The notes below the pieces were generated by a model. The model was not told the origin of the DNA. It ran no database searches and was given only the letters and a program-made list of their open reading frames with translations. 64,000 nt of DNA from Sphingomicrobium sp. (lineage in GTDB: Bacteria; Pseudomonadota; Alphaproteobacteria; Sphingomonadales; Sphingomonadaceae), in NCBI GenBank assembly GCA_035537335.1, contig DATLMM010000063.1, positions 1,576 through 65,575 of the forward strand. The letters are read 5' to 3'. This document shows positions 5,399 through 36,066 of the stretch, piece by piece. Every line of letters begins with the position of its first letter. Position 1 is the stretch's first letter. The position numbers were made by a program, and so were the translations under genes.

Positions 5399-5470
5399 GG
5401 TGTCGGCATAGCGCTTCCCTTGGCCGTTGCCAGCGGGCTAAAGAGGGTTCGACACTTTGGGAGTAACCTC

Positions 5471-5629
5471 GTGAGCGACGACGCGGCCAAGCGGCCGGTG
5501 ACCGACAAGACGGTCGGCGACAAGCCGGAAGGCAAGCAGTTCAAGACCGGCGTGGCGGTGGGCATCGGCTCGGCCGCGATCGTGGCGGCGCTGCTCTACG
5601 CCCGGTCGAACAAGCCAAGAAAGAAGTAG
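5471..5629 (+). CDS. Small (52 aa) protein with one hydrophobic segment and basic tail, hypothetical
   Basis: GGGAG RBS before GTG at 5471; GVAVGIGSAAIVAALLYA then RSNKPRKK; fills the addB-addA gap on the opposite strand. Confidence 0.6.
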   Translation: MSDDAAKRPVTDKTVGDKPEGKQFKTGVAVGIGSAAIVAALLYARSNKPRKK

Positions 5630-5656
5630 GCGGGTCCGCCTCCGCCGGGATGAAGA

Positions 5657-13191: not shown

Positions 13192-13269
13192 TGTTGCAGT
13201 AAAGTGACAGGCATCGTCCAATTGGCTCGGATGCCTCTACGTGATTGTGTTTGCGAGGACTCCACGAAA
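13192..13269 (+). promoter_or_regulatory. Upstream module copy 1: TGTTGC-N6-GTGACA ... TTGTGTTT-N10-CACGAAA
   Basis: Same elements at nearly the same spacing precede the second TBDR (19356-19436). Confidence 0.55.
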
Positions 13270-13310
13270 GAGAGGAACGGCCTGCCATTTTTTCAGAATC
13301 GGGTCTCCTC

Positions 13311-16300: not shown

Positions 16301-16505
16301 TGCCGAACGGAGGTACAGCCCGTCTGTGTTCTATCATGATGTTCGAGCATCGATCGACGTGAACAAGCAGTTCAACTTCTACCTTGGCGTCGACGATATC
16401 ACCAACCGGAAGCCGCCTCTTGGCGGAACCGGCATCGGCGCTGGCAGCGGTATCTATCGTAATATCGGCCGCTTCTTCTACGCTGGTGCTGTCGCCAAAT
16501 TCTGA
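13311..16505 (+). CDS. TonB-dependent receptor 1
   Basis: Signal peptide ending PSMA/Q, TonB box EIVVTGSRI, plug motifs LRGLG..RTLVLVNGRR and IERVDVVTGGNSAIYGSDAIAGVVNF, C-terminal Phe. Confidence 0.96.
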   Translation: MTKMTLLSATALRTLAAAGLSLAATPSMAQDVQPQPTPPTEGTTTNTTTTETAPPEALQSEVEIESGTEANTADEIVVTGSRIRRPNLESAVPVTSVSGEEFFETGQTSIGDTLNELPALRSTFSQANSTRFLGTAGLNILDLRGLGTQRTLVLVNGRRHIASNVLGNAVEVDVNTIPTDLIERVDVVTGGNSAIYGSDAIAGVVNFVLKQDFEGLQLRGQGGVSKYGDAGNYYVSALGGRNFGSDGQGNVAVNLEYARQNDFYASDRGKCFRTQCGFVRVDTDTGASSDDTPDRVYLEDIRSALYTNGGSLYGFGLVLDPADPLIGGNGVFTIPFTFTPGGDLIPVTGQRVGIAPFGSFIGGNGNNFREGTQFGLSPALDRYSANLIARYEVSPALVPFVEAKFVRTKSFGNASGPFFGPAIGETYASGPLEGFDREAIFSDNPYLSDQARGVLDEQGLTYFYLYRNYVELGNREEKARRDTFQIVGGLRGEFNDDWSYEVSANYGRLKENTRILGNVNTQRYLLALDSVVDPASGNIVCRSQIDPTAAISLRNNLDPAFAASQLAADVAACTPLNPFGEGNISQATRDYILQDTLAKGRINQFVLNAFVSGDTSQFFNLPGGPVGFALGVERRTYDVSYRQDASTRAGLTFYNAIPNFEPPKFAVTETFGEVRLPILRDQLFHELTITAAARYAKYKQFGGVWAYNVGGEFAPIRDIRFRGNFSRAVRAPSLADAFTPLGSNFTPAPLDPCALDNINQGSEFREANCRAAGVPADFNYTYTQSLAYLSGGNADLSPEKSDSITLGGVVQPRFVPGFSLSVDYYNITVDDVITSPTAQDVIDACYDLPSTDNPFCALFQRNAGPGAGPTGEIPGQILENSLELTPLNYAKLKVRGIDVEAAYRTNLGSIGRLDTRFIYTRALQNDEFLDPTDPDRADQLLLELGDPKHAFNFNSSLKTGPLTIGYQMRYLGKQLINLAEYEFFFSKNGEDPQDPDYAERRYSPSVFYHDVRASIDVNKQFNFYLGVDDITNRKPPLGGTGIGAGSGIYRNIGRFFYAGAVAKF

Positions 16506-16525
16506 ACTCGGAAGCGAGTGACTGG

Positions 16526-16562
16526 GAAGGGTCGGGACTTTGTCCCGACCCTTCTTGCTTTT
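16526..16562 (+). terminator. Intrinsic terminator-like hairpin after TBDR1
   Basis: GAAGGGTCGGGAC-TTT-GTCCCGACCCTTC (13-bp perfect stem) then TTGCTTTT. Confidence 0.75.
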
Positions 16563-16597
16563 GAGAAGCGGATTGGCGATCTTAAGCTATCGGTCCT

Positions 16598-17245
16598 ATG
16601 TGGACGCGAACGTTGCAGACACTTGTGCTTGAGTGTCCGAGAAACGTCGATTCCAGATCGGGTGCTGTCTTGTACGAACCTTCAAAAACGGTCTTGTCTT
16701 CGGTCGGCGATGCGCTGGAGAACGCGCGCAAGCTCCTGCCCACCCATCCGTTGGCAGCAGCGGAGCAAGCTCGAGAGATCATCCGGGTGGAGCCGGACAT
16801 CGCGGAAGCTTATGTTCTGCTTGCATGCTCCCTGCGGTCGGTCCGTGACGATGCTGAAGCTTTGAGGAACGAGCAGATCGCGATCGCTGTGGCGGAAAAA
16901 TCTCCGGTGATCGTTCGTGTGCGCAAGCAGATTGCTGATGGCGATCTGTCGAAGGCTGATGAACTGCTGCAACTGTACCTTGCGGACACTCCGAACGATC
17001 CCGTGGCCATTTACCTCCGTTCGCACGTGAGAAAGCGCTTGAGTGACTTCAGTGAAGCTCAACGACTGCTTGAGCGAGCGATCGCTTTGGCTCCGTCCTT
17101 TCAAGACGCGCGAGTTGCTCTCGACGCGCCTCCAACAACAGCCATCGGTGCTCTCCAACAAGGCTCCGCCGACGACATCCTCGATGACGGAAGCTGGTTC
17201 ACGGGCGAACCAGAGAAATCCGGCGAGAAGTCCCCGGCGACATGA
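16598..17245 (+). CDS. TPR-repeat protein (start uncertain)
   Basis: TPR-like helices (EPDIAEAYVLLA, AQRLLERAIALAPSF); ATGA overlap with the sulfotransferase; resembles that protein's N-terminal TPR region. Confidence 0.7.
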   Translation: MWTRTLQTLVLECPRNVDSRSGAVLYEPSKTVLSSVGDALENARKLLPTHPLAAAEQAREIIRVEPDIAEAYVLLACSLRSVRDDAEALRNEQIAIAVAEKSPVIVRVRKQIADGDLSKADELLQLYLADTPNDPVAIYLRSHVRKRLSDFSEAQRLLERAIALAPSFQDARVALDAPPTTAIGALQQGSADDILDDGSWFTGEPEKSGEKSPAT

Positions 17246-19035
17246 GGGATCGTTCCGTTGTTCTAGGCTCGAAAGAACAAGCACTTGCCAACGCCCGAGG
17301 ATTACTGACGCGTGATCCCTCTTCTGCCGAGCGGCAGGCAAGGATCGTCATTGATGGAGATGCCGAGTGCCCGGAGGCACATAGACTGCTGGGCCAAGCC
17401 CTTCGACAACTCGGCCGCGCGGAAGAAGCACAACAAGCAGAGGAAGCCGCGATTCGGTTTGCACTCCTCCAGCCGACCTTGTTCGAGGCGGCGATGGCTC
17501 TGGTGCAAGTAGATTTGAATAAGGCAGAGCGGTTGCTTCGGCCCTACTTGAAGCAACATCCAGATGACGCTGCGGCGCTTCGCATGCTGGCCGAGATAGC
17601 AGGTCGAACCGGCCACTTCGACGCCGCCGAACGGTTGGTGGAACGCGCGCTGGCAACCGCGCCGGACCATGCGCCTGCCCGAGCTCTGCAACAATCGATA
17701 CGGCGCCTGCGCATGCGTGGAAACGACGTTGCCTCCGGGCAGCTCCGCGGAGGGTTCACTGGCGGCGAGGAAGAGACTGGAGAGGAAAACCAGAGCGAGG
17801 CGTTGAAGCTGTACGAAGAAATTGTACATCGCTTTCCGGACAGCCCTGAAAATTGGGTGACCTATGGCCATGTTCTGAGGTCGGTCGGCAAGCAGAATGA
17901 AGCCGTTAACGCTTACCGCCAAGCGCTGGAGCGGCGCGTCCATTCCGGCGAAGCTTGGTATGGCATCGCAGATCTGAAGGCAGCACGCTTTGCTGTTGAC
18001 GATCTGACTCAGATGCAGCGCGCCCTTGCTTCTCCCGATCTCTCATCGAATGACCGAGTGCAGCTGGAGTTCGCCCTAGGACGCGCTCTGGAGCAGTTCG
18101 GATCGCCGGCCGAAGCATTTGAACACTACGCCGTGGCCAACGAACTTCGAGCGATACAATCAACATACCAAGCAGATCCCATCTCCCGGCATGTAGAATC
18201 GTCGAGGCACCTCCTCGGTCCAGAGTTCTTCGAAGCGCGGGTCGGCGCTGGAGATCCGTCGTCAGACCCGATCTTTATCTTGGGCATGCCCCGAGCAGGC
18301 TCGACGCTGCTCGAGCAAATCCTCTCGAGCCATCCGCTGATTGAAGCCACTGGCGAGCTTGCCGACCTGCCGAACCTTGCAAACACCTTGGCGGAGCAGA
18401 AAGTCGCAGCATTTGAGGATAGCCCGTATCTGCCTAATCTGATGGCGCTACCCCCTGCTGACCTGCTTCGACTTGGTCGCAGCTACATCTGGAGCACGGG
18501 CCTGAGACGGCGAACCACGCGGCCATTCTTTCTGGACAAGATGCCCAACAACTGGCTACATCTTGGACTTCTTATTAGCGTTCTGCCGAACGCCAAAATC
18601 ATCGACTCGCGGCGGCACCCGATAGCTTGCAGCTTCTCCAACTTTCGGCAGTACTTCGCCAAAGGGCAAGAGTTCAGCTATGACTTGAGACACATGGGGC
18701 GCTTCTACCGCGACTACGTCATTTTGATGGAACATTTCGACGAGGTTCTGCCAGATCGTATCTATCGGGTCGTACATGAGGATCTCGTCAACAATCCCGA
18801 AGACGAGATCCGGCGACTGCTAGACCATTTGGGCGTGGACTTCGACGAGCGGTGCCTTCGCTTTCATGAGAACAAGCGTACGGTGAAGACGGCCAGTTCA
18901 GAACAGGTCCGCCGTCCGCTCAATCGCGAAGGGTTCGATCAATGGCGCCCCTTTGCCGCCTGGCTTCAACCCCTTCGAGACGCCTTGGGTTCACTTGGCG
19001 ACGATTATTCCTCGGAGCAGGCTAAACCTTCGTAG
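17242..19035 (+). CDS. TPR-containing PAPS-dependent sulfotransferase
   Basis: N-terminal TPRs; PIFILGMPRAGSTLLEQIL (5'-phosphosulfate loop), DKMPNN, RHPIACSFS (3'-phosphate binding), TASSEQVR. Confidence 0.9.
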   Translation: MRDRSVVLGSKEQALANARGLLTRDPSSAERQARIVIDGDAECPEAHRLLGQALRQLGRAEEAQQAEEAAIRFALLQPTLFEAAMALVQVDLNKAERLLRPYLKQHPDDAAALRMLAEIAGRTGHFDAAERLVERALATAPDHAPARALQQSIRRLRMRGNDVASGQLRGGFTGGEEETGEENQSEALKLYEEIVHRFPDSPENWVTYGHVLRSVGKQNEAVNAYRQALERRVHSGEAWYGIADLKAARFAVDDLTQMQRALASPDLSSNDRVQLEFALGRALEQFGSPAEAFEHYAVANELRAIQSTYQADPISRHVESSRHLLGPEFFEARVGAGDPSSDPIFILGMPRAGSTLLEQILSSHPLIEATGELADLPNLANTLAEQKVAAFEDSPYLPNLMALPPADLLRLGRSYIWSTGLRRRTTRPFFLDKMPNNWLHLGLLISVLPNAKIIDSRRHPIACSFSNFRQYFAKGQEFSYDLRHMGRFYRDYVILMEHFDEVLPDRIYRVVHEDLVNNPEDEIRRLLDHLGVDFDERCLRFHENKRTVKTASSEQVRRPLNREGFDQWRPFAAWLQPLRDALGSLGDDYSSEQAKPS

Positions 19036-19355
19036 TGTAGTTAGGCTCGACGAGCGGTAGAGCTTTCGCCGAGGCTGCGTGCTTCTTCTGCGCGTCGGCA
19101 TGATTTCGCATGCCAGAACATTCGTTACTCTGAATCAAGAGCAACTTGACTGGGAAGACCCTTCGTCTTCGTGTCTTTGAAGAGACCGTTCTGTGGAACC
19201 AGGTGCACGCCAAGCATAACGACGGCGAAGCGGACGCAACCCTTCGGAATTCACCTCGGAAGTTCGGGGGTCCAAGTCCTTGCTCAGCAATCAGACACAC
19301 AAGCGATGATGCTAACAAGTATCCTCCAGCGAAGGTCAGCGCGTTACGCGACGTA

Positions 19356-19436
19356 TGTTGCCGATATGTGACACCGATCTGGAACTCGTGGTCCGGATCA
19401 ACACTCAGCTTTGTGTTTTCTCTCAGTTGCACGAAA
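19356..19436 (+). promoter_or_regulatory. Upstream module copy 2: TGTTGC-N6-GTGACA ... TTGTGTTT-N11-CACGAAA
   Basis: Matches the module upstream of TBDR1; palindrome ends 99 nt before ATG versus 101 nt for copy 1. Confidence 0.55.
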
Positions 19437-19472
19437 AGGCGCGAATCCTGCCTACCAATCAAGGAATCGTTG

Positions 19473-22400
19473 ATGAAAAAGATCTCGTTGCTGGGAACAA
19501 CGTCCCTGCGCACCTTTGCAACCGTCGGTCTGGTGTTCGGTATTGCCGGCGTTGCCAACGCTCAGGAGACCCCAGCAGAGACGCCAACTCCCGACAGTCA
19601 GCAGACTGCCGGCGAAGACGCTCCCGAGACTCTTGGATCTGAGGTCGAGGCACAATCGGGCGAGAATGCAAATACCTCCGACGAAATCGTCGTCACTGGA
19701 TCGCGCATTCGACGGCCCAACCTCGAGTCGACCGTTCCGGTCACGTCGATCGGCGGTGAAACCCTCTTTCAGCAGGGTGATGCCAACATCGGCGACACGC
19801 TCAACGAATTGCCGCAGCTTCGCAGCACGTTCGCCCAGCAGAACCCGGGTCTGGGGATCGGCATTGCCGGCCTTAATCTCCTCGACCTGCGTGGCCTTGG
19901 TACGCAGCGCACGCTAGTGCTGGTGAATGGCCGCCGACATGTTGCAGCCGACATCCTGAACAACGCTGTATCGCCTGACGTCAACTCGATTCCGAATGAT
20001 CTGATTGAGCGCATCGACATCGTGACGGGTGGCAATTCCGCCATTTATGGTTCCGATGCTATTGCTGGAGTCGTCAACTTCGTCCTCCGCCGAGACTTCG
20101 AAGGGCTGCAGATCCGCGGGCAAGCAGGTGTTTCGCCGCGCGGATTCGGCGGAAATCAGTACGTTTCCGCCATGTACGGCAAGAACCTCGCAGATGACCG
20201 TGCAAACATCACCGTGCATGGCGAATTCGCCAATCAGGAGCGTGTGTTCGGTTCCAGCCTGCCATGGCTTCGATCGGTCAACGGCCAGATTAACACGGAT
20301 GTCGATCCGGCCGGTCTGCCAAACGGTAGCGACGGCGTGGCAGACTTCACGTTCAACCGCGATGTTCGCAGTGCAACGAACAATCGCTTCGGCCTGATTC
20401 CGATCACTCAGTCCGCAGCAACGCCAGCTTGCGGAACGGGCATTGCAGCAAGCAACGGCCCTCCGTCCACCGTTGGAGGAAGTCCGTACAACTGCAACTT
20501 CTTGTTCGATCCGGCGGGCAATCTTGCAGCACAGACTGGGACGCGAGTTGGCGCAGGTCCGTTCGGCAGCTTCCTCGGCGGCAATGGGCAGACGGGTCGT
20601 GAGGGTCGGCTCTTCTCGGTGCAGCCTGAAGTACAGCGCTACAACTTGAACCTGCTTGCACATTTTACGATCAACGACGCAATCGAGCCGTTCGTTGAAG
20701 CCAAGTGGAACCGGGTCAACGCCCTCGGGAACAATGCCGGCCCGTCGTTTATCCAAGGCACTTTCGGGCAATTCGATGCTCGCGAGCGTGTTCGCCTCGA
20801 TAATCCATTCTTGGACCTTTCCGAACGAACCACCATCGCCAACGCAATCCTTGCGTCCGGTTGCAATACCGATCTGTCAACGGCTTGCGGCACCCGCGCA
20901 TCGGTGTTCGGAACCGGCTTGGGTCGGAGCGGTGCGCTGAATGCAGTCGACCGGGCGGCGATCGCGAACGGAACATATCGGTTTGTCGTTGCTCGCAATC
21001 TCCTCGACGCAGGTATTCGCGATGAAGAAAACCAGCGTGATACTTACCGCATCGTTGGAGGATTGCGCGGCGACTTCAATGATGACTGGAACTACGAAGT
21101 CTCTCTGAACTATGGAAAGTTCAAAGAGAAGAAGACGACTTTTGGCTACCTCGACAGGCAGCGCTTTATGCTTGCGCTCGATGCTGGGGTAAATCCGCTT
21201 ACCGGGCAGATCCAGTGCCGATCGCAATTCGATCCAGCTGCTGCGGCCGCGTTCGATCGGGGCCAGTATCAGGTCAATGCTCCGACAGCTACGAACCCGA
21301 ACCCCAGCCGTGGCAACGCCGGCCAAGTCGGTCGGTTGGCCGCGGATATTGCTGCCTGTCAGCCGTACAATCCATTCGGTGGTAGCGACAACAGCGCTGC
21401 AGTGGACTACTTCAGCTACAATTCGCGCACTACTGGGTCGCTTCGGCAATTCGTTGCGACCGGCTTTGTTGGCGGTGACAGCAGCCAGTTGTTCGAGTTG
21501 CCCGGCGGACCTGTGCGCTTTGCACTTGGCGCGGAGTATCGGCGGGAACAGGGTGATTATACCGATGACCCGTTCACGAACGAGGGTAACCCACTTGCCA
21601 CTGACCCGAGCAGCGTCAACCCAGTGACTCAGACGAATACCAATGCGGTGGTCATTGGCCGGTTCAATCCAGACACCTTCAAGGTTCAGGAGGCCTTTGG
21701 GGAACTCCAGATTCCGATCGTAAAAGAAATCCCTCTCTTTCACGAGCTTACCCTTAGTGGCGCTGCTCGAGTCTCGAAGTACAACAAGGTTGCGGGGGAT
21801 GTAGGAACGGTTTGGACCTACAACGTCGGGGCGGATTGGGCACCTGTCAGGGACATCAGGTTCCGCGGAAACTACAGCAAGGCTGTCCGTGCGCCGAACC
21901 TGTCGGAACTTTACTTTCCGCCCGTGCCGAACTTCGCTCCGGGCTTCGTTGACCCATGCTCGTCCAACGTAATCGCCAACAATCCCAATCGCTCGAGTAA
22001 CTGCCAGGCCGATCTGGGCCCGCTGCTGGCTTCCATTCGCAACTCGGCGATCTCGCTGCCGGTCATCAGCGGCAGCAATCCTCTCCTCGGAGAAGAGACC
22101 TCCCGATCCATCACGCTCGGAGCGGTCGTGCAACCTCGCTGGGTGCCGGGGCTGTCCCTCAGCGTCGATTACTATAAGATCAAGGTGGAAGACGTGATCG
22201 TGTCGCTTACGGCTCAAGCGATTGCGAACAACTGCTATGATCAACCAAGCCTCAGCAACGTGTTCTGTTCCTTGTTTGACCGGAATCGTGGCACGGGACC
22301 CGACGGCTTCGGCCAGAACCCGGGCGAAATCTTGGGCAACACGCTCATTCAGGCAGGCGTCAACTTCGCAGCGCGCCGGCGTGAGGGTGTCGATGTGAAC

Positions 22401-22952
22401 GTTGCCTATCGCGGAGACTTGGGGAACCTCGCAAAGATTAACACCAACTTCATCTATACTCACAATATCAAGAACAGTAACTACGAGAACCCGGCCCTTC
22501 CCAAGTTCGAGAACCGCATCCTTAGCGAGTTGGGTGATCCTCGTGATGAGTTCCGTTGGGACACGGATCTCACGCGTGGCGCATTTACCTTTGGTTACCG
22601 GATGCGGTACATCGGCCCGATGCTCACCAGTCTGTACGAGAACTTCTACGAACTCGACACGGCTTGCAGCACGACGACTTGCCCGCCCAACAACTTGGAC
22701 GCAGCGGAGCCCAGGAAGTATGACGCGGTCTTCTACCACGATATCCGGTTCGAAGTAGATTTGAAGGATACGGCTGGTTTCGGTAAGCAGTTCTCCTTCT
22801 ACGCTGGTGTCGACAACCTTCTCGACACGCACCCGCCGCTGGGCCTGTCCGGCACGGGTACCACCGGCATCACCGATCGCGGTACCGGTAACGCGGCGAT
22901 CTACGACGCGTTCGGTCGGAAGGCATACGCGGGCTTCCGCGCACGCTTCTAA
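19473..22952 (+). CDS. TonB-dependent receptor 2 (paralog of receptor 1)
   Basis: Start MKKISLL behind AAGGA; signal peptide ANA/Q; DEIVVTGSRIRRPNLES; plug motifs; C-terminal RARF. Confidence 0.96.
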   Translation: MKKISLLGTTSLRTFATVGLVFGIAGVANAQETPAETPTPDSQQTAGEDAPETLGSEVEAQSGENANTSDEIVVTGSRIRRPNLESTVPVTSIGGETLFQQGDANIGDTLNELPQLRSTFAQQNPGLGIGIAGLNLLDLRGLGTQRTLVLVNGRRHVAADILNNAVSPDVNSIPNDLIERIDIVTGGNSAIYGSDAIAGVVNFVLRRDFEGLQIRGQAGVSPRGFGGNQYVSAMYGKNLADDRANITVHGEFANQERVFGSSLPWLRSVNGQINTDVDPAGLPNGSDGVADFTFNRDVRSATNNRFGLIPITQSAATPACGTGIAASNGPPSTVGGSPYNCNFLFDPAGNLAAQTGTRVGAGPFGSFLGGNGQTGREGRLFSVQPEVQRYNLNLLAHFTINDAIEPFVEAKWNRVNALGNNAGPSFIQGTFGQFDARERVRLDNPFLDLSERTTIANAILASGCNTDLSTACGTRASVFGTGLGRSGALNAVDRAAIANGTYRFVVARNLLDAGIRDEENQRDTYRIVGGLRGDFNDDWNYEVSLNYGKFKEKKTTFGYLDRQRFMLALDAGVNPLTGQIQCRSQFDPAAAAAFDRGQYQVNAPTATNPNPSRGNAGQVGRLAADIAACQPYNPFGGSDNSAAVDYFSYNSRTTGSLRQFVATGFVGGDSSQLFELPGGPVRFALGAEYRREQGDYTDDPFTNEGNPLATDPSSVNPVTQTNTNAVVIGRFNPDTFKVQEAFGELQIPIVKEIPLFHELTLSGAARVSKYNKVAGDVGTVWTYNVGADWAPVRDIRFRGNYSKAVRAPNLSELYFPPVPNFAPGFVDPCSSNVIANNPNRSSNCQADLGPLLASIRNSAISLPVISGSNPLLGEETSRSITLGAVVQPRWVPGLSLSVDYYKIKVEDVIVSLTAQAIANNCYDQPSLSNVFCSLFDRNRGTGPDGFGQNPGEILGNTLIQAGVNFAARRREGVDVNVAYRGDLGNLAKINTNFIYTHNIKNSNYENPALPKFENRILSELGDPRDEFRWDTDLTRGAFTFGYRMRYIGPMLTSLYENFYELDTACSTTTCPPNNLDAAEPRKYDAVFYHDIRFEVDLKDTAGFGKQFSFYAGVDNLLDTHPPLGLSGTGTTGITDRGTGNAAIYDAFGRKAYAGFRARF

Positions 22953-22977
22953 CTTCCGATAGCCAGGATAGAATTGC

Positions 22978-23009
22978 AGGGCCGGAGCAATAGCTCCGGC
23001 CCTCTTTTT
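22978..23009 (+). terminator. Intrinsic terminator after TBDR2
   Basis: AGGGCCGGAGC-AATA-GCTCCGGCCCT then CTTTTT. Confidence 0.8.
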
Positions 23010-23047
23010 CGTTGCGCTGACCCGGGCTCAGAGGCACAGGTCGATCT

Positions 23048-24004
23048 GTGTCAGTCATCAACCAAGCCCACCGAATGGTCGACATCGGGCGAGTCAGTGA
23101 CGCAGTTTCCCTGCTTCAGGCAGCCGGTTCTGCTAAGAACGCCGATGCACTTATGGAGCTTGCCGTCTGGCAGCTCGGCGGCCGGTACGTCCCACGTGAT
23201 CTTGCACTTTCACGCCAGAACTTCGGCAAGGCAGCCGCTCTCGGGCATCGGCAGGCTCAATCGATCTATCTAAATCTACTTGGTGTCGGCATCGGGGGAG
23301 TCCGGGACTGGGCCGCCGCGCTCGACCGGTTACAGAAACTCGGCCAAACCGACAACGATGCGCAGCGGCAACTTCGATTGCTGCAAGCGATGGCTCTCGA
23401 CGAGAACGGCGATCCGTTGCAACCGCCGTCAGGCGATCGCTTGAGCAAAAGCCCCGAAGTAGTGCGCTTTTCCGATTTGCTGACCGCTGAGGAATGCCGC
23501 TACCTCATCGACCGTGCGACCCCCGCCTTAGCGCCGGCGGTCGTGATCGATCCCGCGAGTGGCCGAACCGTTCCTCACCCGATCCGGACTTCAGAGAACG
23601 CGGGCTTTCCGTGGGTTGACGAAGATCCGGTGATCCATGCGCTGAACCGCCGAATAGCCGCTGCGAGCCTTACGCAGGCAAGCTGGGGCGAACCGCTGCA
23701 GGTCCTGCGCTATCGTCCGGGGCAGCAGTACAAACCGCATCACGACGCCATAGCTCAAGCCAAGAACCAGCGGATCATCACAGTCCTTGTTTACTTGAAC
23801 GAGGGCTACGTCGGCGGAGAAACCGAATTCCTCCACACCGGCCTACGGGTCGCAGGTCGCACTGGCGATGCCTTGCTGTTCCGCAACGCCGATAACAACG
23901 GAACGCCCGATCCGACGGCGGTCCACGCGGGACGGCCGGTCACCTCGGGCGAGAAGTTCCTCGCCACGAGGTGGATACATCAGCGGCACTTCGGCCCCTC
24001 CTAA
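23048..24004 (+). CDS. Sel1-like repeat + 2OG-Fe(II) oxygenase (prolyl 4-hydroxylase family)
   Basis: Sel1-like N-terminus (VPRDLALSRQNFGKAAALGH); EPLQVLRY..YKPHHD (HxD), LVYLN..GGETEF, HAGRPV..GEK..TRW. Confidence 0.88.
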   Translation: MSVINQAHRMVDIGRVSDAVSLLQAAGSAKNADALMELAVWQLGGRYVPRDLALSRQNFGKAAALGHRQAQSIYLNLLGVGIGGVRDWAAALDRLQKLGQTDNDAQRQLRLLQAMALDENGDPLQPPSGDRLSKSPEVVRFSDLLTAEECRYLIDRATPALAPAVVIDPASGRTVPHPIRTSENAGFPWVDEDPVIHALNRRIAAASLTQASWGEPLQVLRYRPGQQYKPHHDAIAQAKNQRIITVLVYLNEGYVGGETEFLHTGLRVAGRTGDALLFRNADNNGTPDPTAVHAGRPVTSGEKFLATRWIHQRHFGPS

Positions 24005-26204: not shown

Positions 26205-26684
26205 ATGACCATCCAGATCGGCGATCGCCTGCCCGAAGTCCCGCTGACCATTGCCACCGGCGAAGGCCCTCGGCCGACCACCACCACCAAATATTTTGGT
26301 GGCAAGAAGGTGGCACTGTTTGCCGTCCCGGGCGCCTACACCCCGACTTGCTCGGCCAAGCACCTGCCCTCTTATGTCGAAAAGGCCGACGAGCTTAAGA
26401 GCAAGGGCGTGGACGAAATCGCCTGCACCAGCGTCAACGATGCCTTCGTCATGAGCGCCTGGAACCGTGAGGCAGGCAGTGAGCACATTACCATGCTGGC
26501 GGACGGCAATGGGCAGCTGGCCGACGCATTGGGTCTGACCATGGACGGCAGCAAGTTCGGCATGGGCACACGCTCGCAGCGCTATTCCATGATCGTGAAC
26601 GATGGCGTCGTCGAGCAGCTCAACGTGGAAGCGCCGGGCGAGTACCAGGCCTCCAGCGCCGAGACGATGCTGGGTCAACTTTAA
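26205..26684 (+). CDS. Peroxiredoxin (Prx5/type II)
   Basis: VPGAYTPTCSAKHLP, SVNDAFVM, RSQRY; AGGAG RBS. Confidence 0.94.
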   Translation: MTIQIGDRLPEVPLTIATGEGPRPTTTTKYFGGKKVALFAVPGAYTPTCSAKHLPSYVEKADELKSKGVDEIACTSVNDAFVMSAWNREAGSEHITMLADGNGQLADALGLTMDGSKFGMGTRSQRYSMIVNDGVVEQLNVEAPGEYQASSAETMLGQL

Positions 26685-26738
26685 GCAAAGCGTAGTAGTC
26701 GCCCGTCGCTGTTCGGCCTCTCCCTGGCGAGAAGACTT

Positions 26739-26763
26739 GCAACGACGGGCGGCGCTGCACGTT
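26739..26763 (+). promoter_or_regulatory. EcfG (general stress sigma)-like promoter
   Basis: GCAAC-N16-CGTT ending 33 nt before the Ser/Gly-rich gene; consensus GGAAC-N16/17-CGTT. Confidence 0.45.
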
Positions 26764-26796
26764 GAGCGGTCAGCAAACTTTTGCGAAATGAGGAGC

Positions 26797-27462
26797 ATGA
26801 CCGTGGCCAATAACGATCGAAACGACAGCAATACGACCAGTCAGCGTCGCACGACCGCCGAGAAAACCAACAAGAGCAACGAACGCGGCCGCTTTGCCGG
26901 CATCGGGCAGACCGTGAAGGATCGCCCGTATGCAGCGGCCGCCGTTGCGACGGCTGCCGCCGCGGCAGGCGCATTCTTCTTCTCTCGCCGCAGTGGCAGC
27001 TCAGGGTCCGCGGTCAAGTGGGGCCAGCAGTCCGACGGTGAGTCGCAGCGCGGCAGCTCAGCCGGAAGTGCTGGCAGCAGCTTCGCCCAAGGCTCGACCA
27101 GCCAGGACAGCCTGCTGGAAACCAGCAGCAGCAGCCCAAGCAGCAGCGCCGGCATTGGCGCGGGCACCGGCGGAAGCAGCCCGAGCGACCTGTCGAGCAG
27201 CACTTCCGGTAGCGGCAGCACGAGCGGCAAGAGCGGCAGCAGCGGCGTCTCGGGGTCGGACAGCAGCGACAATCTGAACACCGGCACCAACACCTCGTCG
27301 GGAGCGGGCAGCAGCACGAGTTCCACCTCCACAAGCGGTGGGAAGGGCTCGGCCAAATCGAGCAACACCGGCAGCCAGACTTCGTCGGCCAAGGGCAACA
27401 CTGGGCTCGACGAGACCTCCGAAGACCAGACTAAGACAGGTTCGATTGCCTACGGAGCCTAA
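26797..27462 (+). CDS. Ser/Gly/Thr-rich low-complexity protein with one hydrophobic anchor
   Basis: GAGGAG RBS; DRPYAAAAVATAAAAAGAFFFSRR segment followed by a long S/G/T-rich tail; terminator follows. Confidence 0.75.
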   Translation: MTVANNDRNDSNTTSQRRTTAEKTNKSNERGRFAGIGQTVKDRPYAAAAVATAAAAAGAFFFSRRSGSSGSAVKWGQQSDGESQRGSSAGSAGSSFAQGSTSQDSLLETSSSSPSSSAGIGAGTGGSSPSDLSSSTSGSGSTSGKSGSSGVSGSDSSDNLNTGTNTSSGAGSSTSSTSTSGGKGSAKSSNTGSQTSSAKGNTGLDETSEDQTKTGSIAYGA

Positions 27463-28734: not shown

Positions 28735-30624
28735 CTACCACCCGCACTGCTTGCCGGCGTTCTGCTCTTCCAGCCACTTCTGCAGAGGCGCGAAATATTC
28801 CAGCATCGGGCGTCCGGACATCTCACGCGAGCCGGTGAAGGCTTGCAGCGCATCGGGCCAGGGCTTGGACGCGCCCATCTCCAGCATCGCGTTCAGCCGC
28901 TGACCGACCTCCTTGTTGCCGTAGAAGGAGCAGCGGTGCAGCGGACCCTTCCACCCGGCCATGTCGCACGCCGCCTTGTAGAACTGGAACTGCAGGATGC
29001 GGGCAAGGAAGTAGCGGGCGTAGGGCGTGCTAGCCGGGATGTGGTACTTGGCGCCCGGATCGAAGTCCGCCTCGGTCCGCTGACCCGGCGGGGTAATGCC
29101 CTGATACTGGAGGCGCAGCTGGTTCCAGCCGGCGTTGTACTGCTGGGGCGTGATCGAACCGTCGAACACGCCCCAGCGCCACTTGTCGACCATGAGGCCG
29201 AACGGCAGGAACGCCACCTTGTCCATTGCCTGGCGGAGCAGCAGGCCGGTATCCTTGGACGCGTCCGGGACCTTGTTGCGATCAAGCAGGCCGATCTGCA
29301 CGAGATACTCCGGCGTCACGGACAGAGCGATGAAGTCGCCAATCGCCTCGTGGAAGCCGTCGTTGGCGCCGTTCAGGTAGAGATACGGCTGCTGATTGTA
29401 GGCGCGCTGGTAGTAGTTGTGGCCAAGCTCGTGATGGATGGTCACGAAATCGTCCCCGTTGACCTTGGTGCACATCTTGATGCGCAGGTCGTTCTTGTTG
29501 TCGAGGTCCCAGGCCGACGCGTGGCAAACGACTTCGCGCCCTTCCGGACGGACGATCTGAGAACGCTGGTAGAAAGTCGCCGGCAGCGGCTGTAGCCCGA
29601 GGGAGGTGTAGAAGCCTTCGCCGATACGGACCATGTCCTCCGGCGTCTTCTTCTTGGCCTTCAGCAACTCCGTCACGTCGTAGCCGACATCGCCGGCACC
29701 GGCCGGCGCGACCAGGTCGTAAATATTTCCCCATTCCTGCGCCCACATGTTGCCTAGCAGGTCGGCGCGGATCGGGCCGCTGTTGGGCTGCACCGCATTG
29801 CCATACTTCTGGTTGAGCTTGGCGCGGGTAAAGCAGTGAAGCTGATTGTATAGCGGCTTAACCTCGGCCCACAGCCGGTCGTACATGCCGGAGAACTCCT
29901 GCGGGGTCATGTCGTACTGCGACCGCCACATGGCGCCGCTGTCCTGGTAGCCGAGGTCCTTGGCACCAGCATTGGCGAGCTCGACCAGCCGGGTATAGTC
30001 GGCGCGCATCGGTCGCCCGACATTATTGTGCCAGCTGGTCCAGACTTCCTGAGTCTTCCGGGGATCGCGCAGCGTGCCCATCGCTTCCTCGGCATCGTCA
30101 CCGGTGATGGTCTTGCCGTTAAGCTGAGCGCGGCCCTTGCCGTACGTCGATTGCAGGCGCGTCGCAATGGTGTTGAGCTCGGCCGCGGCACCGGGCGTGG
30201 AAGGCGCCGCGAGCACCAGGGCACCGCGGAGGATGTTAAGCTTGCGCGCCGTATCCGGATCGAGGCCCTGCACCTGAGCGAAGCGGGCCGCCTCCTTGGC
30301 GTAACGTACACCCTTTTCGGTTCCGATCGTTCCGAAGTAAGCCGCAAGGGCGTCCGTATCGTCGGTAATGTAGGTGGAATTAACCCACTGCGCGCGGCTG
30401 GAGATGGTCGAAAGATCGAACAAGTCCTTCTCGACCTCCGCAATGAACTGCCGCGCCCCCTCCGACGTGGAGGGGTACACTGACGCGGGCGGGGCATCGG
30501 TCGTGCCGGGCGTGTCGTTCTGCGATACGGCCAGCGGAGCAGCCGCCGTGCTGTCGCCACTGGCCGTGGTCATGCAGCCGGCAAGGGCGAGGGCGAGCAG
30601 GGAAACGGAAGCGGCCAATTTCAT
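28735..30624 (-). CDS. M2 family metallopeptidase (ACE-like peptidyl-dipeptidase), lipoprotein
   Basis: Lipobox LAGC; HHELGH zinc motif plus EAIGD third ligand; LLGNMWAQ, FDPGAKYHI, LQFQF. Confidence 0.93.
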   Translation of the reverse strand: MKLAASVSLLALALAGCMTTASGDSTAAAPLAVSQNDTPGTTDAPPASVYPSTSEGARQFIAEVEKDLFDLSTISSRAQWVNSTYITDDTDALAAYFGTIGTEKGVRYAKEAARFAQVQGLDPDTARKLNILRGALVLAAPSTPGAAAELNTIATRLQSTYGKGRAQLNGKTITGDDAEEAMGTLRDPRKTQEVWTSWHNNVGRPMRADYTRLVELANAGAKDLGYQDSGAMWRSQYDMTPQEFSGMYDRLWAEVKPLYNQLHCFTRAKLNQKYGNAVQPNSGPIRADLLGNMWAQEWGNIYDLVAPAGAGDVGYDVTELLKAKKKTPEDMVRIGEGFYTSLGLQPLPATFYQRSQIVRPEGREVVCHASAWDLDNKNDLRIKMCTKVNGDDFVTIHHELGHNYYQRAYNQQPYLYLNGANDGFHEAIGDFIALSVTPEYLVQIGLLDRNKVPDASKDTGLLLRQAMDKVAFLPFGLMVDKWRWGVFDGSITPQQYNAGWNQLRLQYQGITPPGQRTEADFDPGAKYHIPASTPYARYFLARILQFQFYKAACDMAGWKGPLHRCSFYGNKEVGQRLNAMLEMGASKPWPDALQAFTGSREMSGRPMLEYFAPLQKWLEEQNAGKQCGW

Positions 30625-30688
30625 GGGCTTGAACCTCAAAGGCTGATTGTTCGCGTGGGCAGCGGACTGCGACACTGTCACTGAACCG

Positions 30689-32139: not shown

Positions 32140-33168
32140 CTAAGCCGCCTTCTGTAGGTGCCGTCGCCCGAGCAGCTCCGCGATCTGCACCGCGTTCAGC
32201 GCGGCGCCCTTGCGCAGGTTGTCGCTGACAACCCACAGCGACAGGCCGCTATCCACGGTAGGATCCTCGCGCACCCGCGAAACAAAGGTCGCATAATCGC
32301 CGACGCACTCGACCGGGGTGACGTAGCCGCCGTCCTCGCGTTTATCGACCAGCATGACGCCAGGCGCCTCACGCAGGATGTCCTGTGCTTCCTTGGCAGA
32401 GATGTCTCGCTCGAACTCGACGTTGATGCTTTCGGAATGACCGACGAAAACCGGCACGCGGACGCATGTGGCAGTGACCTTTATGCGCGTATCCAGAATT
32501 TTCTTGGTCTCTACCACCATCTTCCACTCCTCCTTGGTCGATCCGTCGTCGAGGAAATCGTCGATGTGCGGGATGACGTTGAAGGCGATCTGCTTGGTGA
32601 ACTTGGCTGGCGCGGTCGGGTCGCCAACGAAGATATTCCGGCTCTGCTCGAACAGCTCGTCCATGCCCTGCTTGCCCGCGCCGGATACCGACTGGTAGGT
32701 CGAGACCACCACCCGCTTGATCCCGGCGACATCATGGAGCGGCTTAAGCGCGACTACCATCTGGGCGGTGGAGCAATTCGGGTTGGCGATGATATTCTTC
32801 GCCCGGTACCCGGCGATGGCTTCCGAATTGACCTCCGGGACGATCAACGGAACATCAGGATCCATCCGGTAGAGCGATGAATTGTCGATCACCGTGCATC
32901 CCGCCGCAGCGGCACGGGGCGCGTGGAGCCTGCTGCCTTCCGAGCCGATGGCGAACAAGGCCATGTCGAAGCCTTCGAAGTCGAAGTGTTCGAGGTTCTT
33001 GACCTTGAGCTCTTCGCCCGAGTCCCCGAAATCTATGATGTCGCCGGTCGAACGGGCGCTGGCGACGGCTGCGACCTCGTCGAGCGGAAACTGCCGCTCA
33101 GCCAGGATCTGCAGCATCTCGCGTCCGACATTCCCCGTCGCACCAACAACGGCGATCCGATAACCCAT
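32140..33168 (-). CDS. asd: Aspartate-semialdehyde dehydrogenase
   Basis: VGATGNVG, NPNCST catalytic Cys, STYQSVSGAG, DNLRKGAALN. Confidence 0.97.
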   Translation of the reverse strand: MGYRIAVVGATGNVGREMLQILAERQFPLDEVAAVASARSTGDIIDFGDSGEELKVKNLEHFDFEGFDMALFAIGSEGSRLHAPRAAAAGCTVIDNSSLYRMDPDVPLIVPEVNSEAIAGYRAKNIIANPNCSTAQMVVALKPLHDVAGIKRVVVSTYQSVSGAGKQGMDELFEQSRNIFVGDPTAPAKFTKQIAFNVIPHIDDFLDDGSTKEEWKMVVETKKILDTRIKVTATCVRVPVFVGHSESINVEFERDISAKEAQDILREAPGVMLVDKREDGGYVTPVECVGDYATFVSRVREDPTVDSGLSLWVVSDNLRKGAALNAVQIAELLGRRHLQKAA

Positions 33169-33225
33169 TTCATGCTCCAATCCGCGAGAGGCTGCCGATA
33201 TGGGATGGGCCTCCGGCTTGTCCAG

Positions 33226-34161
33226 CTAGGACGCCATATGCTCGCGGGCAGAAGTCATGAGGGCGTGGCCAAGCTCCGTCAGATGGCCTCCCTGCTCGAT
33301 CACCTCGTTACCGGCGTGGAAATTGCGGCGATGCAAGACGAGATCAGCCCGAGCTGCCTCGGCTTGCTCGTCATCCAGAACTCCCACGCTCAGCAATCGC
33401 TGCAGCGTCTGGTGCATTCGAGCGATCACGTAGGTTGCGTGGATCACTCCGTCCATTGGCCGCGGGTCGGCGCGCAACGGCGAGTGGAAGAGTTCGTCGT
33501 CGGGACTGTCAGTGAGCGGACCGGAAGCGCAGAAGCCGAACAGCAGATTATGTCCGCTTTCGTGCGCAAGGGCCTGGGCGGTGTCGAGCACCGTCTTCTG
33601 CCCTCGTGCATTGAGCAGGATGGCGCCCCACAGCATGAAGCAGGAGGCGCCGTCGAAGGTCAGGGCCTTGGGATCTTCGGGTCCGGTCGCCACTACGATC
33701 TCTCGCAGCAGCGCCCGTATCTCGGCTGCAAGCTGCGGAAAGCCGCGGTCGAGCAGGTCGAATGCGTCATCGACCCTGCGCCGGCACTCGCCAAGGATCA
33801 CGGCATCGGGCGGCTCGGCCATCTCCGGCGTTGGTAAAAAAAGACGCCGGCAACGTTCGGCATGAGCCTGTGGGCGGTCGTCGATGGCCCCGACGTGAGC
33901 CCCGGTCGTCGGCACGGCCTCCTCATAGCCGGTCGACACCAGCTCGCGGGCGAGTTTTCTCGCCCGATCGAGCTGATCCTGTTCCAGCGCGAACACCAGA
34001 TCATAGTAGGTGCCGAAAAGCTGCGGCGACTGCGGCTGCGCCCGAACAGACGCGACCGTCTGCGCGATCTGCTCACGACCTAAAGCGAGAGGTTCACCGA
34101 CCTGACCGCATAGGTAATCGAGACTGTCCGCAAGCCGGTCACGCATGCGCTGATCGAGCAT
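33226..34161 (-). CDS. HExxH-motif protein (aKG-HExxH-type peptide-modifying oxygenase candidate); may start at CTG 34224
   Basis: FDGASCFMLWGAILLN, LAHESGHNLL, SPLRADPRPMDGVIHATYV; frame stays open 21 codons upstream to a CTG 2 nt after the peptide's stop. Confidence 0.8.
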   Translation of the reverse strand: MLDQRMRDRLADSLDYLCGQVGEPLALGREQIAQTVASVRAQPQSPQLFGTYYDLVFALEQDQLDRARKLARELVSTGYEEAVPTTGAHVGAIDDRPQAHAERCRRLFLPTPEMAEPPDAVILGECRRRVDDAFDLLDRGFPQLAAEIRALLREIVVATGPEDPKALTFDGASCFMLWGAILLNARGQKTVLDTAQALAHESGHNLLFGFCASGPLTDSPDDELFHSPLRADPRPMDGVIHATYVIARMHQTLQRLLSVGVLDDEQAEAARADLVLHRRNFHAGNEVIEQGGHLTELGHALMTSAREHMAS

Positions 34162-34226
34162 GCGGCCGCGGTCGGCGCTCGGCTCAAACGTAGGAGCCGA
34201 TAGGATGTCGACGGCGGTGGCCAGCT

Positions 34227-34409
34227 TCAGGCTTTGAGCCCGAGCTTCGCCCCGATCTTCACGCCAAGCTTGTTGCCGACCTTGGCGCCAACCTTCGCTT
34301 CAAGCTTGCCCGTGGTCTCGTTGCGGATGGATGGGCGATGCTCAACAATCTGGTCAAACCCAAGCAGGCGGTTCCAGTCTAGCTTTGCAGAGACGTTTTC
34401 CCTGTTCAT
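34227..34409 (-). CDS. 60-aa putative RiPP precursor with (K-[LVI]-G-x)n core
   Basis: GGGAGA RBS 5 nt before ATG; MNRENVSAKLDWNRLLGFDQIVEHRPSIRNETTG-KLEA-KVGA-KVGN-KLGV-KIGA-KLGL-KA. Confidence 0.75.
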   Translation of the reverse strand: MNRENVSAKLDWNRLLGFDQIVEHRPSIRNETTGKLEAKVGAKVGNKLGVKIGAKLGLKA

Positions 34410-34504
34410 ACAATTCTCCCTGTCAGACGGCATGCTGCCCTTGCGACTCGTTATCTTAACGTTAATCTCTGCTCGGGACAATCGGCTTGTACGGGGGAGC
34501 GGCC

Positions 34505-35536
34505 TTGATCCTAATCGTCACCACGCGAGAGCACCGCTACACGCATGAGGGGCTGGCTGCCGAAACTGGTGTAGCCATGCGGGTCGTGACCTATGACGAA
34601 CTACTCCGGCGCAGGAAGCTTTTTGGCGCTACCCACATCTTCACCGATGTCGACCGCCTCCCTTCCTGGCGCGTTCACGAGGCGGCCTTGCTGTACCGCG
34701 ACCTCAAGAAGGCAGGCATTAGGGTCTTGAACGACCCCGCACGAATGCTTGGGCGCTTCGGATTACTTCGCGCACTCAACCGGTCCGGCATGAACAGCTT
34801 CGATGCGTATCGGGCGGAGGAGCTCGAGCGGCCGCGGAGGTGGCCGGTTTTCCTGCGGACGGAAGGAGACCACCGCTTCCCGGTGTCCGGCCTGCTCCAC
34901 AGCCAGGCAGAGCTGGACGAAGCACTAAGGAGCAGCGTTGATGTTGGAGTTCCGCACAGCGCCTTGCTGATCATCGAATATGCAGCCGAGCCGGTGCGTC
35001 CCGGACTTTTCCGCAAGCTGTCTATGTTCCGAGTTGGCGAGCGACTGCTTGGCTACACCTGCGTCCATGACGACCAGTGGCTGGTCAAATATGGCAAGCC
35101 GGGGATCGCCCCGCCCGAACTGTATGAAGAAGAATATTCAATCGTCGCGAACAATCCGTTTGCGGACGCCATCCTCCCGGCCTTTGAAATCGCCGGCATC
35201 GAGTATGGCAGGGTGGACTTCGCCGTGGTGGCCGGAAGGCCGGTCATCTACGAGATCAACAGCAATCCCAACGTGCAGCTTAAGCCGCCCGCCAGCCCCG
35301 CTACTCGGCGCAACGAGAGCACAGAATTGTTCCGGCTTAATTATCTGGACGCGATGAGTGCGATTGACAGCGGTCCTTCCGCGAGCCTGGGTCTGCACTT
35401 TGCCCTGCTCGCACAACGGGCGAGCGCCGCCCCAGGGAAGGCGAACCGTGCGGTCCGCAGTTGGCATCAGAAATTGCGGGCGGTGTTCAAGAACAACGGC
35501 AAGCGTAGCAGCGTCGGCCCGCAGCCAACCAGCTAG
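34505..35536 (+). CDS. ATP-grasp fold protein
   Basis: GGGGAG RBS before TTG; RVLNDP, WPVFLR, LLIIEY, YGRVDF..VIYEINSNP (D...ExN metal-binding end of ATP-grasp). Confidence 0.7.
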   Translation: MILIVTTREHRYTHEGLAAETGVAMRVVTYDELLRRRKLFGATHIFTDVDRLPSWRVHEAALLYRDLKKAGIRVLNDPARMLGRFGLLRALNRSGMNSFDAYRAEELERPRRWPVFLRTEGDHRFPVSGLLHSQAELDEALRSSVDVGVPHSALLIIEYAAEPVRPGLFRKLSMFRVGERLLGYTCVHDDQWLVKYGKPGIAPPELYEEEYSIVANNPFADAILPAFEIAGIEYGRVDFAVVAGRPVIYEINSNPNVQLKPPASPATRRNESTELFRLNYLDAMSAIDSGPSASLGLHFALLAQRASAAPGKANRAVRSWHQKLRAVFKNNGKRSSVGPQPTS

Positions 35537-35628
35537 TAAGCGACGAGGAAGGGGGCCTCCGCGGGCTCCGTTACTCAAGCGCTTGGCCTCGCGACCTCCC
35601 CCGCTTTTACGAGGGAGGTGCTTGCCTG

Positions 35629-36066
35629 TCAGGCCTCGGCGCTCTCGGTTTCCGGAGTGACAGACTCGGTCGCCGGAGCCGCCGCTTGGTTCTTGGCATT
35701 TAGGCGCGGGTCACGGCGTTCGGCGATGCGAGCCGATTTGCCGGTGCGGCCGCGCAGATAGTAGAGCTTGGCGCGGCGAACGGCACCGCGGCGCACGACA
35801 TCGATCGAGTCGAGCGACGGCGAGTAGAGCGGGAACACACGCTCGACGCCTTCGCCGAAGCTGATCTTGCGCACTGTAAAGTTGCTGTTGATGCCCTTGT
35901 TGGCGCGAGCGATGCACACGCCCTCGAAGTTCTGGACGCGGGTGCGTTCGCCTTCGATGACCTTGACGCCGACCCGCAGGGTGTCGCCAGGACGGAATTC
36001 GGGAATGGCACGGGCCTGGGTGAGCTCCGCGATCTGCTCGCGCTCGATGGTCTCGATGAGGTTCAT
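35629..36066 (-). CDS. rplS: 50S ribosomal protein L19
   Basis: [32 protein letters not shown]. Confidence 0.98.

Follow-up and report, generated by a model that had tools for sequence, protein, structure and literature searches.

Within a 64,000-nucleotide stretch of the Sphingomicrobium sp. assembly GCA_035537335.1 (contig DATLMM010000063.1, positions 1,576 to 65,575 of the forward strand; hereafter the window), a short open reading frame (ORF) with a lysine-rich repeat lies between genes for a HExxH-type oxygenase and an ATP-grasp-fold protein (Table 1). The three genes form an island, since in a genome of the same genus (G759, locus L118) rplS is followed by asd only 82 bases away and the trio is absent from the site; across five same-genus genomes, the family search turned up no close copy. 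No protease, transporter or regulator gene lies inside the island, and NCBIfam and Pfam label a single member of the trio, which recurs in many bacteria. We conclude that the repeat is genuine and under selection, that it belongs to an uncharacterised cassette resembling those of RiPPs (peptides made on the ribosome and modified after translation), and that the trio likely makes an undescribed modified peptide. A literature search, in which coverage of subscription journals was thin, found no published description of this trio.

Table 1. Features of the three-gene island; positions are counted from the first letter of the window.
Feature	Position	Strand	Remarks
Three-gene island, 2.3 kb	33226..35536	both	between asd (32140-33165) and rplS (35629-36066)
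Predicted precursor peptide gene (P0001), 60 aa	34227..34409 (including stop)	minus	ATG 34409, TGA 34227
Shine-Dalgarno-like AGGGAG	34416..34421	minus	6 nt 5' of precursor ATG, read from sequence
Leader motif LDWNRLLGFDQ, residues 10-20	34350..34382	minus	predicted enzyme-recognition site, conserved in homologues
Core, residues 35-60	34230..34307	minus	seven period-4 Lys, five K-x-G-x-K, charge +6, one Glu
aKG-HExxH (alpha-ketoglutarate-dependent) oxygenase	33226..34230	minus	first ATG 34161 (311 aa); HESGH at 33550-33564
ATP-grasp-fold protein, 343 aa, divergent from precursor	34505..35536	plus	TTG start after GGGGAG (34494-34499)

A sequence-only reading of the window had described a strict four-residue (12-nt) periodicity in the peptide's C-terminal part, and for the window copy we can confirm it in detail. 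The codons place lysine at residues 35, 39, 43, 47, 51, 55 and 59, with K35 beginning at 34307 and A60 finishing at 34230, exactly as had been proposed. A hydrophobic residue stands at +1 in all six units (L, V, V, L, I, L) and glycine at +2 in five of the six (E, G, G, G, G, G), while the synonymous codon variation noticed earlier is present (GTT/GTC, CTT/CTC and GGC/GGG all occur; lysine is AAG six times and AAA once). In a six-frame translation of the genome (1.77 Mb searched, 75% complete), amounting to 3,547,582 residues, all period-4 runs of five, six or seven lysines fall at this single place. Pairwise identity among the six 12-nt units is 42–75% (mean 64%), with synonymous differences in 11 of 32 same-residue codon pairs; because the units all differ, with not one identical pair, a recent DNA slippage repeat was ruled out. 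A contig from run X1 spans 33112-35700 with one difference and no gap, although this run is possibly the source of the window DNA and so is not independent; runs X2, X3 and X6 yielded short pieces only. A scan for sigma-70 promoters returned no sites against 0.5 expected, and terminator-like sites numbered two against 2.1 expected.

The repeat-bearing ORF has no match in Pfam or NCBIfam, an Atlas search with the peptide gave no usable match, and peptide searches of plasmids gave none. A profile built from ten homologues retrieved 396 representative matches (E ≤ 0.001). Family motif counts rest on the best 150 of these 396 representatives; three long proteins (P0015, P0088, P0126) were left out beforehand, as were, for the set of 149 cores, two more without a leader recognised by regular expression. 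The family leader reads L-D-W-x-x-L-L-G-F, with variants L-D-x-x-K-L-L-G-F: L10, L16, G17, F18 and Q20 are invariant in a 10-row alignment, and L10, D11, L16, G17 and F18 are each kept in at least 90% of 118 rows. Of 13 leader codons compared with four orthologues, 4–6 differ synonymously and two non-synonymously. The core is variable, with 2–11 G-x-K motifs in each of the 149 cores, runs of at least seven lysines in a minority (20/149), and a C-terminal residue and distance from the last lysine that vary widely. From the first G-x-K on, 61 of 149 cores contain no Asp or Glu, and the offsets of these residues are scattered. Periodicity, too, is looser than in the window copy, with only 444 of 630 Gly-x-Lys lysine spacings equal to four.

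The motif itself is nonetheless widely kept. K-x-G-x-K is found in 147 of 151 cores, and the residue following [KR]-[VILF]-G-x is Lys in 542, Glu in 12 and Arg in 11 of 583 cases. Because the profile was itself seeded with the motif, these counts carry a bias from the query. We therefore used as a check loci chosen through the oxygenase; their precursors were recognised by the peptide profile, while the loci themselves were chosen without it. There, K-x-G-x-K occurs in 20 of 21 close-clade precursors, and K-x-G in 25 of the 26 precursors of all such loci. As judged from these alignments, K-x-G-x-K is family-wide, whereas perfect periodicity is not. The ortholog alignment that the earlier reading had suggested thus shows a conserved leader, K and G kept in place, a varying repeat number and open frames. 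Variable copy number probably stems from old unit duplication. The claim that selection acts on the peptide pattern gains support from the synonymous leader changes and from the excess of Lys over Arg; selection would be on lysine rather than on mere charge, because Lys outnumbers Arg by 542 to 11.

A short ORF with a conserved leader and a variable core has the make-up of a RiPP precursor, and we predict with high confidence that the peptide is the precursor of a modified peptide. That the peptide is cationic but unmodified, or that the repeat arose by chance or slippage, strikes us as most improbable. The core is of low complexity with a net charge of +6, as such a reading would have it, but the repeat is unique in the genome and its units have diverged synonymously, a conserved leader lies far from it, Arg almost never takes the place of Lys, and up to six paralogous precursors occur at one locus. 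At that locus (L099, 5253-9615), six different precursors lie between one HExxH gene and two tandem ATP-grasp genes, and another (L020) carries four.

The oxygenase matches TIGR04267 at 108.1 bits (cut-off 40), and ChlH and SjiH are its sole clear matches by sequence and by predicted fold (for ChlH, PDB 8s5f, sequence E 8.7e-5, fold E 6.7e-11, TM 0.61). It carries HExxH, a downstream RxDxRP, a third His and a ChlH-like fold, which together mark the aKG-HExxH oxygenases. The HExxH iron motif is shared, on the available excerpts of the reports, with ChlBH/ChlH (PDB 8s5f), SjiH (PDB 22ob), BpmH, PflC/PosC (PMC12636437) and PesO (PMC13060819), within a family (TIGR04267 / IPR026337) treated in PMC13060819 and PMC12452194. 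Like the ChlH-type enzymes, the window protein has the SPxRxDxRP segment, the third His, the overall fold and an adjacent small precursor bearing a leader; in contrast to those systems, its partner is a carboxylate-activating ligase, and a radical SAM, MNIO or nitroreductase enzyme, a protease and a transporter are all missing. Hydroxylation of precursors by aKG-HExxH enzymes falls on His, Asp, Phe, Gln and Pro, according to the accessible part of PMC13060819, so that the core residues here (Lys, Val/Ile/Leu, Gly) differ from the targets reported in such excerpts, except for the alpha-carbon attack of PflC on Ala/Gly. A triceptide or radical SAM-HExxH cluster was considered and rejected: the island has no radical SAM ORF, no third family recurs, and aromatics make up less than 2.5% of the cores. 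Since homologues conserve an F-x-P segment 5' of the first ATG, the oxygenase probably starts about 23 codons upstream, at a CTG (34230-34228) overlapping the precursor stop; if this start is right, the overlap (CTGA) suggests translational coupling.

For the ATP-grasp protein, no Pfam or NCBIfam family reaches its cut-off, and NCBIfam cyanophycin synthetase gives no match. Its profile matches D-Ala-D-Ala ligase weakly (E 0.003), with alignment of the GRxD...ExN segment; R236, D238, E250 and N252 are conserved and fall on the Arg-x-Asp and Glu-x-Asn segments of the ligase, which we take to be catalytic, and Arg118 and Lys195 are invariant. In the predicted model (pLDDT, a per-residue confidence measure, 89.7) the ATP-grasp fold spans residues 1-291 (Z 12–17), and the best fold matches are the amide-bond ligases RimK (Z 16.9, root-mean-square deviation 3.9, 253 aligned), ArgX (Foldseek E 5.3e-11) and LysX. 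PylC with L-lysine is also among the fold matches (Z 10.9); this enzyme makes an epsilon-amide. RimK, LysX, ArgX and the graspetide synthetases activate the carboxylate of a protein or peptide. With RimK, LysX and ArgX (PDB 4iwx, 3vpb, 5k2m) and with PsnB, MdnC and PruB, the window protein shares the ATP-grasp fold and keeps Arg-x-Asp and Glu-x-Asn, but identity to these ligases and graspetide synthetases is only 10–18%, and unlike their substrates the window core is mostly devoid of carboxylates. The family comprises at least 829 clusters. Among 30 members, none matched the graspetide-synthetase model at E ≤ 1, and only weak D-Ala-D-Ala ligase matches appeared; of 30 Atlas matches, 28 had no common family and one was a RimK-like cluster (PF08443 on 49% of members).

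To see how regularly the three genes occur together, we compared loci chosen through the peptide with loci chosen through the oxygenase. The peptide-first set comprised 58 metagenome loci, reduced to 54 after four without a leader were dropped. A HExxH gene was present at 29 of the 35 loci having at least 400 nt downstream, an ATP-grasp gene, mostly divergent from the precursor, at 33 of the 39 having at least 500 nt upstream, and one enzyme or both at 49/54, an adjacency expected of RiPP precursors; several precursors were found at 12 loci. For the oxygenase-first set we examined every one of the 20 places that turned up in one alphaproteobacterial family (18 of 391 genomes), with a precursor at 15/20 and a carboxylate-activating partner at 18/20. 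The 12 closest loci had a precursor in every case and the window-type ATP-grasp in 10. Neither a recurring protease or exporter nor any other fourth gene was seen beyond the shared flanks of related contigs. In several genera of one family (L100, L101, L104 and L108), the cassette lies in a common lepB-pdxJ region (names from translations); at L104, two other genes take the place of the ATP-grasp. A further precursor (L012, 1448-1831), which has neither of the two enzymes in its vicinity, carries a Peptidase_S74 (endosialidase chaperone) domain fused to its C-terminus.

Beyond these 12, the ligase changes while the leader stays. Three further oxygenase loci all carry a precursor with the same leader, next to either a cyanophycin-synthetase-like (CphA-like) ATP-grasp (L109, L110) or, at L093 (G1070:C12:777000-791000, 3770-7506), an 841-aa AMP-binding/carrier/thioesterase (A-PCP-TE) protein. 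The CphA-like ligase (600–650 aa) stands in for the window-type ligase at L084, L109 and L110, and a genome of another class (G813) pairs a precursor and HExxH gene with it. These variants are not cyanophycin synthetases, because their scores (203–238 bits) lie far under the cut-offs of 850–877. K-x-G-x-K does not occur in the cores of L109 and L110, which are rich in Gly and Lys, and the L093 core has L-F-S-K-R-G twice. Cyanophycin is a comb polymer made by CphA, a non-ribosomal poly-Asp with Arg branches; the predicted product of the cassette would likewise have a repetitive backbone with side branches, and a CphA-like ligase occurs in three loci. At the five most distant oxygenase loci (L094, L111-L114; tree support 100/99 for four), an AMP-binding enzyme is present in all and a precursor was detected in none, although one ends at a contig edge and several have an extra small ORF; these possibly belong to a small-molecule or undetected-peptide pathway. 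As read from their sequences, all partner types activate a carboxylate with ATP. In the HExxH tree (37 rows) the deep forks are open, and it does not give the order of the ligase swaps.

The cassette is patchily distributed. Matches, with the window genome counted each time, were found in 2 of 401 genomes of the class for the peptide profile, in 3 of 401 genomes of the family for the ATP-grasp profile (two being distant and lacking partners in 1.5-kb flanks) and in 6 of 400 genomes of the phylum for the oxygenase profile. In a phylum search with the peptide profile, 9 of 11 other genomes were dropped, three being read as unrelated repeats and the rest matching the repeat part only. Named records of the cassette are from Alphaproteobacteria, plus one ATP-grasp labelled Myxococcota. 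A HExxH locus in G997 (L095) and two on plasmids (L096, L097) have no precursor or ligase of the cassette type.

An ATP-grasp gene beside a precursor is also a feature of graspetides, whose cores, as defined in the accessible part of PMC13097080, pair Ser/Thr/Lys donors with conserved Asp/Glu acceptors. The window core has seven Lys and a single, non-conserved Glu. As acceptors are lacking and no synthetase model matches, the system is not a graspetide. An ATP-grasp enzyme acting on a core free of acid acceptors would need chemistry beyond the graspetide definition. Six members of the family (P0025, P0032, P0042, P0056, P0119, P0129) are tandem polyproteins of a leader plus a single unit ending in A-K-V-G-x-E, with D-F-x-D upstream. 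By their sequence, these could form ordinary Lys-Glu lactams, and this K-V-G-x-E subfamily may meet the graspetide core definition.

As the mechanism, we tentatively favour a reading in which the ligase couples an acid from outside to the lysine epsilon-amines, and hydroxylating the units falls to the oxygenase. The HExxH oxygenase would bind the precursor leader, since three unrelated types of ligase alternate beside a constant leader and oxygenase. The ATP-grasp protein would join an outside carboxylic acid to the Lys epsilon-amine of every Lys-hydrophobic-Gly unit; amide formation on lysine is suggested by the rarity with which Arg replaces it, and an outside acyl donor by the lack of Asp/Glu acceptors, the unpositioned C-terminus and the locus with an A-PCP-TE module. 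The oxygenase would hydroxylate the units, as the precedent of its family suggests. The earlier reading had left open whether one poly-modified peptide or several released units would result, and we favour the former, a product that would be branched and poly-modified. Because the cassette has neither exporter nor protease, this product would probably remain intracellular or rely on general machinery. By analogy only, anti-phage lanthipeptide clusters without a protease exist, according to the accessible part of bioRxiv 10.64898/2026.08.26.747419. A C-terminal lariat formed without proteolysis was considered and disfavoured, as C-terminal residue and spacing vary.

Several observations weigh against acylation plus hydroxylation. 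At L104 and L105, which belong to the 12 close oxygenase loci, an ATP-grasp is missing from the neighbourhood, L039, L041 and L049 carry an ATP-grasp without an adjacent HExxH gene, and L012 and L059 have neither enzyme despite long flanks. Distant ATP-grasp homologues (26–34%) lack a visible precursor, one of them lying in a polysaccharide cluster, and no precursor was detected at the five AMP-ligase loci. The A-PCP-TE partner is known from a single locus on a long branch, whose core reads F-S-K-R-G. Lysine is not among the target residues reported for the oxygenase family in the available part of PMC13060819, and the likeness of the modelled fold leaves the ligase substrate unspecified. Lysine openers, moreover, are commoner in isolated units (59 K/23 R) than in longer runs (84 K/70 R; Fisher p 0.012, for related and hence non-independent sequences), which fits a mechanism acting on lysine pairs better.

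Such a mechanism would be i/i+4 stapling, in which the ATP-grasp forms a lactam from Lys(i) to i+4 across the Gly turn. A Glu at i+4 would be joined directly, whereas a Lys there would first be oxidised by the oxygenase to an acid (aminoadipate), or a diacid (succinate) would bridge the two amines. We consider this unlikely. Besides the opener preference, it accords with the near-universal K-x-G-x-K, both in the family and at the oxygenase-first loci, with the 12 Glu at i+4, which fall within the tandem leader-core subfamily, and with corallotide (graspetide group 15; CorA/CorB/CorC/CorD), the closest analogue of the cassette by comparison of its parts. In the accessible portion of PMC13097080, corallotide combines a repeated Lys-led motif of i/i+4 geometry, modified on lysine, with an ATP-grasp ligase and a 2-oxoglutarate (2OG)-Fe(II) oxygenase; a Lys-Asp lactam is formed over KIVAD and is followed by Lys delta-hydroxylation. 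The analogy has limits, however. CorA has Asp at i+4 (KxxxD), where Lys dominates here (542/583); CorB belongs to TIGR04187 and CorC to PF13640, whereas TIGR04187 is found in 0/30 members of the present ATP-grasp family and the oxygenase is of the HExxH type; and CorA is about 22 kDa against 60 aa for the window precursor. TIGR04267, HEXXH, LLGFDQ and KIGAK are absent from both searched supplements of PMC13097080. Stapling also sits poorly with chains of three lysines (80/291) and with the seven lysines of the window core. Furthermore, K-x-G-x-K is missing from four of the five precursors with CphA-like or A-PCP-TE partners, and deaminating Lys oxidation is not among the HExxH reactions described in the excerpts available.

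A different use of the oxygenase, multi-core cleavage, seems to us quite unlikely. Here the oxygenase would alpha-hydroxylate each conserved Gly and cut the backbone, which would release short amidated lysine units, as in the second possibility left open by the earlier reading, for the ligase then to acylate or join. PflC/PosC do cut the backbone oxidatively, with Ala and Gly favouring alpha-hydroxylation and cleavage (accessible part of PMC12636437); Gly is the second fixed residue of the core, and the cassette has no protease and no further recurring gene. However, PflC, when offered several motifs, cuts only close to the C-terminus in the same excerpt, several precursors of the family carry a single motif, and conservation of Gly is explained equally well by access or by a turn.

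A looser link between the two enzymes, by which the oxygenase hydroxylates the peptide and the ATP-grasp serves another substrate (a cell-envelope polymer or small molecule) in a linked but separate step, appears improbable. Some gene neighbourhoods point this way. Of the distant ligase homologues (26–34%) with no precursor in sight (L068, on the Paracoccus plasmid NZ_CP067229.1, 4229-5278, and L067, L065 and L066), one of 29% on a Paracoccus plasmid sits among flippase, O-antigen ligase and glycosyltransferase genes, and a GT2 gene lies 3' of the ATP-grasp in L016/L018; the wider family may acylate glycans. In most loci, moreover, the precursor and ATP-grasp genes are divergent, and L104 and L105 lack the latter. 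Against this stand the tight co-occurrence (33/39 and 10/12 loci) at many unrelated insertion sites, the presence of three unrelated ligase types beside the same leader, and L039, L041 and L049, where precursor and ATP-grasp are kept together without an adjacent oxygenase.

Taken together, these observations give an unannotated ATP-grasp family a predicted job. The candidate chemistries, namely an outside acyl donor, lysine-to-acid conversion and glycine cleavage, would each be a new RiPP reaction if true, and might serve as a tool for branching or stapling lysines site-selectively. We put it just short of evenly balanced that the cassette represents a new class of RiPP, set apart by branching or stapling on lysine side chains. 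At the same odds stands the fuller view of such a class, in which one HExxH clade reading the common LDxxxLLGF leader would have recruited three unrelated carboxylate-activating machines for decorating or stapling Lys-x-Gly repeats, and the product would be a ribosomally templated comb or ladder peptide acting intracellularly. Exchange of the ligase type next to a single oxygenase and leader amounts to a natural experiment in pathway assembly.

None of four proteins matched the anti-phage hidden Markov models of PADLOC 2.0 (library of 2023). Elsewhere in the window, a block of lower GC (13245-24004; 0.57–0.60 from 14001 on), with no link to the cassette seen, encodes two TonB-dependent receptors, a TPR protein, a TPR-sulfotransferase and a Sel1 / 2OG-Fe(II) oxygenase. 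A 648-aa ORF with an HHELGH motif (28735-30681, minus strand), which presumably resembles a peptidyl-dipeptidase of family M2, lies 2.5 kb from the cassette and does not recur beside the other loci. A low-complexity ORF of 286 codons (26602-27462, plus strand) is Ser/Gly-rich, with an Ala-rich hydrophobic stretch.
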